64,000 nt of DNA from an uncultured Alteromonadales bacterium (GTDB lineage Bacteria; Pseudomonadota; Gammaproteobacteria; Pseudomonadales; Cellvibrionaceae): positions 12,147-76,146 of the forward strand of contig CALMJT010000190.1 in assembly GCA_937864365.1 (NCBI GenBank), in the 5' to 3' direction. Below the pieces are notes generated by a model that had not been told where the DNA came from, did not search any database, and saw only the letters and a list, made by a program, of their open reading frames with translations. Positions 19,832 to 22,907 of this stretch are shown one piece after another (position 1 is the stretch's first letter; every line of letters starts with the position of its first letter). The translations under genes and the position numbers were made by a program.

Positions 19832-19864
19832 AAAAAGCTCGGGCACTTGCTCGGGCTTTTTTTT
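19832..19864 (+). terminator. Rho-independent terminator after rpsI
   Basis: AAAAAGCTCGGGCA-CT-TGCTCGGGC followed by a T8 tract. Confidence 0.85.
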
Positions 19865-19991: not shown

Positions 19992-20091
19992 GTCGCGATT
20001 TACAATCATGCCTAATAATTCAAATTTTAAATCTTAGTGATTCACCCGGTTATCTGTAAGTAAAAGAGTACCTGGAATGGGAGAAAGCCTC

Positions 20092-20685
20092 ATGAGTGAA
20101 GACGGTGTTAATACCGGACGGCGCAAGTTCTTAACAGCGGCGACCTCCGTAGTTGGTGCTGTAGGAGCAGTGGGTGCAGCAGTTCCTTTTGTTGGATCTT
20201 GGAATCCAAGTGCAAAAGCAAAAGCGGCTGGTGCGCCTGTAAAAGCAAATCTTGAAAAGCTTGAGCCTGGTCAGATGGTCACCCTAGAGTGGCGCGGAAA
20301 ACCGGTTTATGTGGTTCGTAGAACCCCAGAGATTTTAGAAGGTATTCGAAAAATGGACGGTGAGGTCCGCGATCCGAATTCCGAAGTTCCTCAACAACCT
20401 GAGTACGTCAATAAAGAGTACCGCTCTATCAAAAATGAGTTCTTGGTATTGCTAGGTCTATGTACTCACCTTGGTTGTGCTCCTCTATTCCGTCCTGAAG
20501 TGGGCGCCGCTGATCTCGGTGGTGATAAATGGCAGGGTGGTTTCTTCTGTCCTTGTCATGGTTCTAAGTTTGATTTGGCCGGTCGCGTATTAAAAGGCGT
20601 TCCTGCTCCTATTAACTTAGAGGTTCCTCCTCATTCCTTTGAGGGAGATTACATTCTCACCGTAGGTGTTGATCAAGAGGCGTAA
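20092..20685 (+). CDS. petA: Ubiquinol-cytochrome c reductase Rieske subunit
   Basis: Tat-type signal anchor GRRKFL; Rieske boxes CTHLGC and CPCHGS; ATG at 20092 after GGAG. Confidence 0.98.
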   Translation: MSEDGVNTGRRKFLTAATSVVGAVGAVGAAVPFVGSWNPSAKAKAAGAPVKANLEKLEPGQMVTLEWRGKPVYVVRRTPEILEGIRKMDGEVRDPNSEVPQQPEYVNKEYRSIKNEFLVLLGLCTHLGCAPLFRPEVGAADLGGDKWQGGFFCPCHGSKFDLAGRVLKGVPAPINLEVPPHSFEGDYILTVGVDQEA

Positions 20686-20690
20686 ACACA

Positions 20691-22907
20691 ATGAGTAAAA
20701 TTGCGGATTTATGGAGTTGGGTTGACTCACGCTTGCCGGTTCAGCGCGCGTGGGATACCCACATGGGAAAATATTACGCTCCTAAGAACTTCAACTTTTG
20801 GTATTTCTTTGGCGTTCTATCCATTTTAGTTCTGGTTAACCAATTGTTAACTGGTATTTGGTTGGTGATGAGCTTTGTTCCAAGTGCAGAACAAGCATTC
20901 GCCTCCGTTGAATACATCATGCGTGACGTTGATTATGGTTGGATCATTCGTTACATGCACTCAACAGGTGCTTCGGCGTTCTTTATCGTTGTGTACCTAC
21001 ACATGTTCCGTGGTTTGATGTACGGATCTTATAAAGCACCTCGCGAGTTAGTCTGGATTTTTGGTATGACCATTTATCTAGCGCTAATGGCAGAAGCTTT
21101 CATGGGCTACGTATTGCCATGGGGTCAAATGTCATACTGGGGTGCACAGGTAATTGTTTCGCTATTCGGTGCGATTCCTGTTGTTGGTGATGATCTTGTT
21201 CAGTGGATTCGCGGTGACTTCCTAATTTCTGGTATCACGCTAAACCGATTCTTCTCATTACACGTTATTGCCCTTCCAATTGTTATTTTAGCGTTGGTTG
21301 TGCTGCACATTTTGGCACTTCACGAAGTTGGATCTAACAACCCAGACGGCGTTGAGATTAAGAAAAATAAAGATGCTAACGGCATTCCTTTAGACGGTGT
21401 TCCATTCCATCCTTATTACTCTGTACACGATTTGGTTGGTATTACCGTATTCTTGTTTGTGTTCTGTTTTGTATTGTTCTTTATGCCTGAAATGGGTGGT
21501 TTCTTCCTAGAACACGCAAACTTCGAACAAGCAAATAACTTAAAAACTCCACCACATATCGCACCGGTTTGGTACTTTACGCCTTTCTATGCGGTACTTC
21601 GTGCAGTAACCATTGATATTGGCCCGCTTAGCTCAAAATTCTTAGGCTTGGTTGCCATGGGTGCTTCGATTGCAATCTTGTTTGTATTGCCTTGGCTGGA
21701 TAAGAGCCCTGTTAAATCAATGCGCTTTAAAGGTTGGTTGCCTCGTATTCAGTTAATGAACTTCGCTGCGATGTTCGTGGTATTGGGATACTTGGGTGTG
21801 CAAGCGCCGACCGATGGTCGTACTTTATTAGCTCAGATAGCGACTCTGTTCTACTTCATTTACTTCATTCAAATGCCAGTGTTTACCAACCCAACTAAAA
21901 ACCAGATGACTCCGGTGAATTTAGTTGTGGCTGTGATCTTAGCTGGATTGATGATTTATATGTCTCTCGGACAAATGGATGCTGATATTCCAGTTATGGT
22001 TCGAGTGTTGGGCTTTTACTTAGCGATTCTTACACTTCTTACTCCATGGTTAACTAACCGTGACGGTTACACTCCAGAGCCAACTCGTGTACAAGCAAAA
22101 GGTTTACCTGCGCACATTGTTTGGGGTGGTGTATTACTGTTTGCAATCTTAGCAATTGTTCCGATCAAATCAGTTGCTGCGACAGGTGGTGAATGTGGTC
22201 ATGTTACTTGTGATCATATGGAGCCAGATTTACACGACAAAGAATCGTTACAACGTGGTGCAAAGTGGTTTGTTAACTACTGTATGGGTTGTCACTCAGC
22301 GCAATACTCGCGCTGGGAACGTGTTGCCGATGATTTGGAAATTCCTCATGAAGATATGATGAGTAACCTTGTTTTGGGTAAAGACAAGATTGGCGATCTC
22401 ATGACAATTGCTATGCCTGCCGCAGAAGCTAAGGCTTGGTTTGGTGCAACGCCTCCAGACCTAACATTGGTTGCTCGCTCACGCAGCCCAGAGTGGTTGT
22501 ACACCTATTTACGTAACTTCTATAAAGATGAGACTCGTCCAACGGGCGTGAACAACAAGGTGTTCGAAAAGGTCGCTATGCCTCATGTTTTAATGGAGTT
22601 ACAAGGTCTAGCTGAGTGTGCACCAGGACCTGCCCTTGATGAGCATGGTCATGTTATGCGTAATGCGTTGGGTGAAGCTCTTCAAGATGAAGAATGTGGC
22701 AGTTTAAAAGTTGGGGCTGTCAAAGGTTCTATGACTACCGAAGAGTTTGATCAAGCCATGTATGACTTGGTTAACTTCATGGAATACATAGCAGAACCTT
22801 ATGCTCTTGATCGTCAACGTATCGGTGTTTACGTATTATTGTTCTTAGTTGTTTTATACATCTTCGTGACTTTATTGAATCGTGAATACTGGCGTAACAT
22901 TCATTAA
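20691..22907 (+). CDS. petBC: Fused cytochrome b / cytochrome c1 (738 aa)
   Basis: Cytochrome b with heme His motifs (RYMHSTG, YLHMFRG, SLHV, VLHI) and a PVWY Qo motif, continuous in frame with cytochrome c1 (CMGCH at 22281-22295, PPDLTLVAR, C-terminal TM anchor). Confidence 0.95.
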   Translation: MSKIADLWSWVDSRLPVQRAWDTHMGKYYAPKNFNFWYFFGVLSILVLVNQLLTGIWLVMSFVPSAEQAFASVEYIMRDVDYGWIIRYMHSTGASAFFIVVYLHMFRGLMYGSYKAPRELVWIFGMTIYLALMAEAFMGYVLPWGQMSYWGAQVIVSLFGAIPVVGDDLVQWIRGDFLISGITLNRFFSLHVIALPIVILALVVLHILALHEVGSNNPDGVEIKKNKDANGIPLDGVPFHPYYSVHDLVGITVFLFVFCFVLFFMPEMGGFFLEHANFEQANNLKTPPHIAPVWYFTPFYAVLRAVTIDIGPLSSKFLGLVAMGASIAILFVLPWLDKSPVKSMRFKGWLPRIQLMNFAAMFVVLGYLGVQAPTDGRTLLAQIATLFYFIYFIQMPVFTNPTKNQMTPVNLVVAVILAGLMIYMSLGQMDADIPVMVRVLGFYLAILTLLTPWLTNRDGYTPEPTRVQAKGLPAHIVWGGVLLFAILAIVPIKSVAATGGECGHVTCDHMEPDLHDKESLQRGAKWFVNYCMGCHSAQYSRWERVADDLEIPHEDMMSNLVLGKDKIGDLMTIAMPAAEAKAWFGATPPDLTLVARSRSPEWLYTYLRNFYKDETRPTGVNNKVFEKVAMPHVLMELQGLAECAPGPALDEHGHVMRNALGEALQDEECGSLKVGAVKGSMTTEEFDQAMYDLVNFMEYIAEPYALDRQRIGVYVLLFLVVLYIFVTLLNREYWRNIH

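Follow-up and report, generated by a model that had tools for sequence, protein, structure and literature searches.

The window examined here, a 64,000-nucleotide stretch of contig CALMJT010000190.1 (assembly GCA_937864365.1) from an uncultured Alteromonadales bacterium placed in the Cellvibrionaceae, contains a single gene, petBC, that encodes cytochrome b and cytochrome c1 of the bc1 complex as one 738-residue precursor. The overall reading of this gene, held with fairly good confidence, is that of a fused bc1 gene of the FbcH type, the product of which is most likely cut after A496 and which carries the long version of a cassette most likely distributed by homologous exchange. The fusion itself is real, ordinary for this lineage and already known. 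Only the pair of membrane helices inserted between the two domains, together with the patchy, cassette-like distribution of this hairpin, appears to be undescribed; a full-text literature search, with subscription journals outside its coverage, returned no description of either. The layout of the gene and its product is given below, with residues numbered along the precursor.

20691-22907, + strand: petBC (fbcH-type), a single 738-residue cytochrome b-c1 precursor, assigned from the open reading frame and from Pfam and PDB matches
20691-21890, + strand: cytochrome b domain (residues 1-400) of eight canonical helices, in which the heme ligands and PVWY are kept
21735-21884, + strand: cytochrome b helices G and H, residues 349-398, holding all ten residues that best separate long from short forms
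21891-22064, + strand: inserted two-helix hairpin, residues 401-458
21912-21968, + strand: hairpin helix X1, residues 408-426, followed by the short acidic periplasmic loop QMDAD
21993-22058, + strand: hairpin helix X2, residues 435-456, after which the hairpin closes with the conserved P-W-L-T-x-(K/R)-D
22074-22091, + strand: PEPTRV, once the C-terminal motif of cytochrome b, where unfused relatives have PVPERVT(G/S) and then a stop
22110-22178, + strand: former c1 signal peptide, now an internal transmembrane helix, residues 474-496, with the predicted cut at A496/A497 (between 22178 and 22179)
22179-22904, + strand: predicted mature cytochrome c1, residues 497-738, 27.5 kDa without heme
22194-22211, + strand: C502/C507 pair, CGHVTC, at the c1 N-terminus
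22281-22295, + strand: CMGCH heme motif, residues 531-535
residues ~639-678, + strand: c1 beta-hairpin extension
22803-22877, + strand: c1 C-terminal anchor helix

The original prediction, made from the letters of this stretch, had claimed an uninterrupted b-c1 frame of the FbcH type, with two extra hydrophobic segments after cytochrome b and a signal-like helix ending K-S-V-A/A ahead of c1. On translation, 20691-22907(+) is stop-free over its 738 codons and each of the motifs is located where it had been placed, including S-V-A/A-T-G-G around 22170-22190; this one frame encloses the c1 signal sequence between its two domains. The Pfam Cytochrome_B N- and C-terminal domains match at residues 27-389 (PF00033, 220.8 bits against a cut-off of 27.2; PF00032, 124.2 bits against 20.7), and Cytochrom_C1 is also matched (PF02167, 67.5 bits against 22.8). 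The best PDB matches are both to Pseudomonas aeruginosa, chain 8smr_I for cytochrome b (query residues 8-408, E value 2e-206, 74% identity) and chain 8smr_J for c1 (query residues 507-735, E value 1e-65, 48% identity), which leaves a linker of ~98 residues between the matching parts.

Conservation was assessed in an alignment of 22 proteins and in a larger one of 120, the latter comprising the window protein and 119 listed of the 1749 fused homologues found, fragments included. The cytochrome b heme ligands H90, H104, H191 and H206 and the motif P292-V-W-Y295 are invariant in the 22 full-length homologues, conserved at 90% or more in the 120-protein alignment, and align with their counterparts in P. 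aeruginosa cytochrome b. In the c1 domain, CMGCH (residues 531-535) and M630-P631 are invariant in the aligned homologues, and the CxxCH motif, distal Met and anchor that characterize c1 proteins of PF02167 are all present. It is scarcely credible that two separate genes have been made to look like a single frame by an assembly or sequencing error: the same uninterrupted frame, 87% identical in sequence, recurs in an independent assembly of the same genus; b and c1 genes are found in 149 of the 151 sampled genomes of the family, in one open frame wherever the contig permits judgement; and the 1749 homologues were obtained from a database search limited to long proteins. The 57-residue hairpin is, moreover, entirely missing from unfused relatives, so that no single insertion or deletion would yield the petBC sequence from them.

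The two extra hydrophobic segments are borne out by hydropathy and by structure prediction. Kyte-Doolittle profiles (19-residue windows) peak at residues 409-427 (2.21) and 433-451 (1.99), and again at 474-492 (2.30) and at the c1 anchor, 711-729. AlphaFold2, run with the 120-sequence alignment, places helices at residues 408-426, 435-456 and 474-496, with a predicted local distance difference test (pLDDT) score of 85-97 across this block; the values for the hairpin helices are above those of much of the canonical protein. The insert is variable in sequence but constant in pattern, consisting of T-N-P, X1, a short acidic loop, (V/I)-P, X2 and P-W-L-T-x-(K/R)-D, and among long forms P452 and D458 are invariant and L454 nearly so. 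Each of the ten linkers scanned has an even number of hydrophobic segments (0, 2 or 4). Two Cellvibrionaceae proteins, of 789 and 815 residues, have four such segments inserted after helix H and ahead of PEPxRV, and another two keep the usual pair with a periplasmic loop 30-40 residues larger. The loop charges obey the positive-inside rule, which, together with the even counts, agrees with the earlier argument that an even number of inserted helices leaves c1 on the periplasmic side. As a membrane element, the hairpin is conserved and under selection.

Roughly one-half of the family possesses the hairpin, which is 57-71 residues long. By insert length, the 120 aligned proteins divide into two classes (59-71 residues or 7 residues), and 98 of the 116 that are near full length keep the two-helix linker. 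Long forms comprise 738-751 residues, whereas in the short forms (683-685 residues) the end of helix H runs directly into (R/K)E..PEPxRV. The window carries the ‘long’ cassette, and a hairpin-less ‘short’ cassette alternates with it among closely related species. Of the alignment columns, the ten most diagnostic of class (349, 350, 351, 354, 357, 361, 384, 387, 394 and 397) all belong to helices G and H, none of the ten lying outside residues 349-397, and on a helical wheel positions 350, 354, 357 and 361 fall inside a 60-degree arc (±40 degrees). Because the short-type G-H residues resemble those of unfused outgroups, the long type is taken to be derived.

The alternation is seen most directly between close relatives. 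The long protein of Simiduia sp. 21SJ11W-1 and the short protein of S. aestuariiviva are 100% identical over residues 1-285, 56-73% identical over residues 345-400 and 97-100% identical directly past the insert, and the same local dip in identity is found in the DNA of five genera. Within Pseudoteredinibacter, two genomes of P. isoporae differ from three others in the presence of the hairpin, with only 0-2 differences in 331 residues over cytochrome b 1-335 and an almost identical PetA transmembrane helix. A tree of the flanks tracks genera and needs at least six changes between long and short forms; these flank data reject the long forms as one clade (log-likelihood difference, delta lnL, 726; P value of the approximately unbiased test, p-AU, 1e-4). 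In a tree of residues 336-400, by contrast, all long forms lie on one side of a single branch, and the G-H data reject the monophyly of four genera, including Simiduia and Pseudoteredinibacter (P = 0.003-0.015, for groups chosen after the alignment had been viewed). Because trees of the G-H segment conflict with those of the rest of the gene, the segment behaves as a cassette, and helices G and H act together with the hairpin as one co-adapted module, with a history unlike that of the remainder of petBC.

Among the 151 family genomes none was found with both a long and a short copy (two genomes with three matches were not looked into), so the two forms behave as alleles. Paralogy of long and short forms was considered and rejected, since almost every one of these genomes has a single locus and none has both. 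No co-variation of the hairpin with the Rieske transmembrane helix or with the c1 anchor was found; the PetA transmembrane helix is the same in long and short genomes of the Simiduia and Pseudoteredinibacter sets and of a further pair of genomes (g43), which represent the three genera whose long and short forms are most closely paired, and differs in the g46 and Teredinibacter pairs.

Homologous exchange of a segment of 0.2-0.4 kb is, by a modest preference, the better account of how the cassettes alternate. The other account, which is rather unlikely, holds that the patchy distribution reflects many independent losses or gains of the hairpin, each with subsequent compensatory changes arising in parallel in helices G and H. 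It would require an identical set of ~10 substitutions to have occurred, in one direction or the other, six times or more, and it sits poorly with the outgroup-like character of short-type G-H residues and with the rejection of genus monophyly by the G-H data. Synonymous differences cut both ways. In the two closest genus pairs they are higher in the G-H segment than in the flanks (0.44 versus 0.32, P = 0.035), as exchange would predict, but over all five genus pairs they are not clearly so (0.48 versus 0.43, P = 0.19). The synonymous excess is therefore only marginal, and recombination is not proven by it. Parallel change also draws some favour from the hairpins themselves, which differ strongly between genera (37 of 59 residues between Simiduia and Pseudoteredinibacter), arguing against recent transfer of a whole cassette. 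Homologous exchange may operate more widely than these genera: as a tentative extension, helices G and H and the hairpin could be an exchangeable cassette existing as two old, co-adapted alleles that have been recombined among species and genera across at least eight marine gammaproteobacterial families.

The most likely packing site of the hairpin is the G/H face of cytochrome b, where the positions that change with it are located. Two points weigh against this placement: it is drawn from co-variation only, and a mutual-information contact analysis was noisy (effective number of sequences, Neff, ~51), being at best suggestive of X2 touching G and H. The likeliest role of the hairpin would be that of peripheral membrane mass stabilizing or shielding the G/H face. 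An earlier suggestion, that the extra helices stand in for a supernumerary subunit or a supercomplex interface, is weakened and has gained no direct support: a separately encoded counterpart of the hairpin was not found, and the hairpin co-varies with G and H and not with the Rieske or c1 helices, where subunit IV is located in Rhodobacter sphaeroides. A link with the presence of cbb3 oxidase was considered and set aside; ccoN occurs in 144 of the 151 family genomes irrespective of the long or short form, which makes this comparison uninformative.

Two candidate origins of the hairpin were rejected. Capture from a free-standing small protein finds no separate homologue among 1.84 billion representative proteins, in which a profile of 21 hairpins gave six matches; each of these is a fused b-c1 protein, either in full or as a fragment. 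An origin of the hairpin as a tandem copy of G-H was considered as well; both hairpins are 57 residues long and both end in P-x-(W/F/L)-T, and hhalign aligns them in register over 49 columns (probability 4.9%, score 15.8). This match is no better than those to other helices or to a reversed control, and the duplication, though suggestive, is unproven.

Beyond the hairpin, the internal helix of residues 474-496 retains a signal-peptidase motif and satisfies the -3/-1 rule of signal peptidase I. In the 120-protein alignment, position 491 (-6) is Pro in 120 of 120 sequences, position 494 (-3) is Ala in 117 (Ser in the window protein), position 496 (-1) is Ala or Gly in all 120 and position 497 (+1) is Ala or Ser in 116. 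From residue 441 to residue 509 the window petBC lacks any in-frame ATG, GTG or TTG, and c1 is therefore not separately translatable with a signal peptide. FbcH of Bradyrhizobium japonicum is reportedly the product of one b-c1 gene in which cytochrome b is followed by c1, with an internal c1 signal sequence at which the protein is cleaved. By analogy, cleavage of the window protein after A496 by signal peptidase I is likely, and the computed products of this predicted cut are 55.8 kDa for cytochrome b and 27.5 kDa for c1.

In the proposed course of assembly, the eight cytochrome b helices would enter the membrane and would be followed by the hairpin, X1 crossing from inside to outside and X2 from outside to inside. 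After a short basic cytoplasmic loop, the signal-derived helix would export the c1 domain, to which heme would be attached at CMGCH, and the C-terminal c1 anchor would insert. Signal peptidase I would then most likely cut after A496, producing an 11-helix cytochrome b of ~56 kDa and a c1 of ~27.5 kDa.

Some observations weigh against this processing. The end of the helix, P-I-K-A-V, is at least 90% conserved, whereas c-regions are variable in unfused relatives, and conservation of the h- and c-regions of the internal helix goes far past the requirements of signal peptidase. Such conservation shows that the helix is retained as a structural part, either closing a cleaved cytochrome b as its last helix or serving as an uncleaved tether. 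Aquifex c1 keeps one more transmembrane helix at its N-terminus (PMC10041115), a precedent for the second arrangement. An uncleaved polyprotein, in which the signal-derived helix would be a covalent tether and c1 would be held in the membrane by helices at both ends, would form an 83-kDa, 13-helix subunit (eight helices of cytochrome b, two of the hairpin and one signal-derived, plus the c1 anchor); the pLDDT of 88-93 for the signal-derived helix and its much greater conservation relative to the cleaved signal peptides of unfused relatives are in keeping with it. This outcome is nonetheless doubtful: the helix would be expected to be equally conserved if it became the final helix of cytochrome b after cleavage, the small -3/-1 residues and the Pro at -6 persist in all 120 sequences, and B. 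japonicum FbcH is said to be cleaved at the equivalent site.

The sequence around the junction suggests how the two genes were joined. In unfused relatives of the same order, cytochrome b ends in ...MPFYTRMEKTKPVPERVT(G/S), and c1 starts with MKK, continues with a hydrophobic stretch and reaches ...FAA/GG. The petB stop and petC start overlap in seven of seven unfused relatives, by one base (TAATG, TGATG) or by four (ATGA). Because the stop overlaps the petC ATG, a deletion of ~2 nucleotides at this point would join the frames and at the same time keep the Sec signal peptide of c1, which would become an internal transmembrane helix. Across the junction, fused short forms read RV(T/Q)-M-(K/N)-G, with the old start Met still in frame, and in the window petBC an Ala occupies the former start-Met position. 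In a tree of the conserved parts, a single branch divides fused from unfused genes of the order.

From the overlapping stop and start in unfused relatives of the same order and from this single-branch separation, we infer that the fusion originated inside this gammaproteobacterial lineage and independently of that in Bradyrhizobium fbcH, as had originally been proposed. Common descent with the Bradyrhizobium fusion is at odds with a junction shared with unfused members of the order and with the closest relationship of both domains to Pseudomonas. The local junction evidence also contradicts the proposal of Degli Esposti (2014, Genome Biol Evol, PMC4986455) that the gammaproteobacterial fusion derives by vertical descent from Planctomycetes.

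Fused homologues are widespread. Those from named organisms include proteins of Simiduia, Pseudomaricurvus, Marinimicrobium, Teredinibacter, Eionea, Agaribacterium and Exilibacterium, annotated in NCBI merely as ‘ubiquinol-cytochrome c reductase’. In a survey of the order, an open frame of at least 640 residues was found in 44 of the 132 genomes with a match, representing ~19 of ~57 families; the remaining genomes have a separate petB of ~420 residues. PMC4986455 lists b-c1 fusions in Teredinibacter turnerae and the free-living relatives of that species as well as in ‘13 gamma-proteobacteria’. Determination of the phylogenetic distribution, which had been put forward as a check on the fusion, thus revealed wide occurrence in both family and order, and the fusion cannot stand as a novelty, being family-wide, present in about one-third of the sampled order genomes and published. 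The fused proteins of Teredinibacter and the other named genera belong to the same protein family and organism family as the window protein (55-87% identity) and share with it the junction PEPxRVQxKGL, after which come the signal-derived helix and PIKAV(A/G)A. It is the fusion alone that is reported in the accessible text of PMC4986455, which makes no mention of the two-helix insert, the two length classes or the mosaic distribution.

In seven genomes of the order survey, all from other families, the cytochrome b match passes ~residue 410 only through 2-3 stops; these read-through matches reflect an alignment entering the out-of-frame petC and do not constitute a finding. A further contig, CAXQRU010000086.1, labelled ‘MAG: Polaribacter sp.’, carries a typical long-form petBC of the Cellvibrionaceae that is nested within the family on the tree. 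Its occurrence in a contig binned as Bacteroidota is likeliest to be a binning error of that metagenome-assembled genome.

Differences from known bc1 systems are found at several levels. B. japonicum FbcH, which reportedly has the same gene organization, is alphaproteobacterial; the window cytochrome b is ~47% identical to alphaproteobacterial cytochrome b, compared with 74% to that of P. aeruginosa, the fusion in petBC is a separate event, and cleavage of the window protein is predicted from its motif alone. The closest solved structure is that of the P. aeruginosa bc1 complex (PDB 8SMR/8SNH; PMC10556555), in which c1 has the same beta-hairpin extension as the window c1. In P. aeruginosa, bc1 contacts cbb3 in the membrane through the c1 anchor and this beta-hairpin (PMC10556555). 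That organism differs in having separate petB and petC genes, a cytochrome b that ends at PVPERV without extra helices, and a c1 N-terminus that lacks the C-x4-C pair.

Extra transmembrane helices peripheral to the three-subunit core, as in the window protein, are present in two other systems. Subunit IV of Rhodobacter sphaeroides is a separate protein that lies over the Rieske and c1 helices instead of G and H, and the c1 of Aquifex aeolicus has its extra N-terminal helix as a fused element (PMC10041115). In contrast to subunit IV, the window hairpin is covalently attached after helix H and co-varies with G and H only. The search of the 1.84 billion representative proteins with the hairpin profile revealed no sequence relationship to subunit IV or to the Aquifex helix.

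The c1 domain contains two conserved Cys pairs. The first, C502 and C507, is invariant in the 120 fused proteins of the alignment. The original prediction had rightly recognized a Cys pair ahead of c1, but had called it an added one; an unfused c1 from a related family has the pair and one fused protein is without it, and C502/C507 is therefore a lineage feature of the c1 N-terminus that is not derived from the fusion. The second pair, C643/C669 (window positions 22605-22700), flanks the c1 beta-hairpin extension, occurs also in unfused c1 and probably forms a disulfide at the base of the beta-hairpin.

The petBC gene is the sole bc1 locus of the genome, the closest named relatives of which are Sessilibacter corallicola and Marinibactrum halimedae. 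The gene order in the window is a zapE-like ATPase gene, rplM, rpsI, petA, the long petBC open reading frame, sspA and sspB. A terminator-like hairpin after rpsI suggests that petA-petBC is its own transcription unit. The two features upstream of petBC are as follows.

19832-19861, + strand: terminator-like hairpin 3' of rpsI, a 13-bp stem followed by a T run, between the ribosomal protein genes and petA-petBC
20077-20685, + strand: petA, Rieske iron-sulfur subunit, with CTHLGC and CPCHGS and the N-terminal transmembrane helix FLTAATSVVGAVGAVGAAVPFVGSW

The junction shows how easily a polyprotein can originate, by the collapse of an overlapping stop and start. Relatives with 0, 2 or 4 extra helices, and with matched changes on the presumed contact helices, amount to a natural experiment, a tractable one in which to ask what leads respiratory complexes to take on supernumerary membrane mass. 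For a gene that is essential and highly conserved, it would be unusual, if confirmed, that part of it is inherited like a cassette, and an exchange of alleles, if true, would imply that the membrane periphery of the bc1 complex is under balancing or niche-dependent selection.

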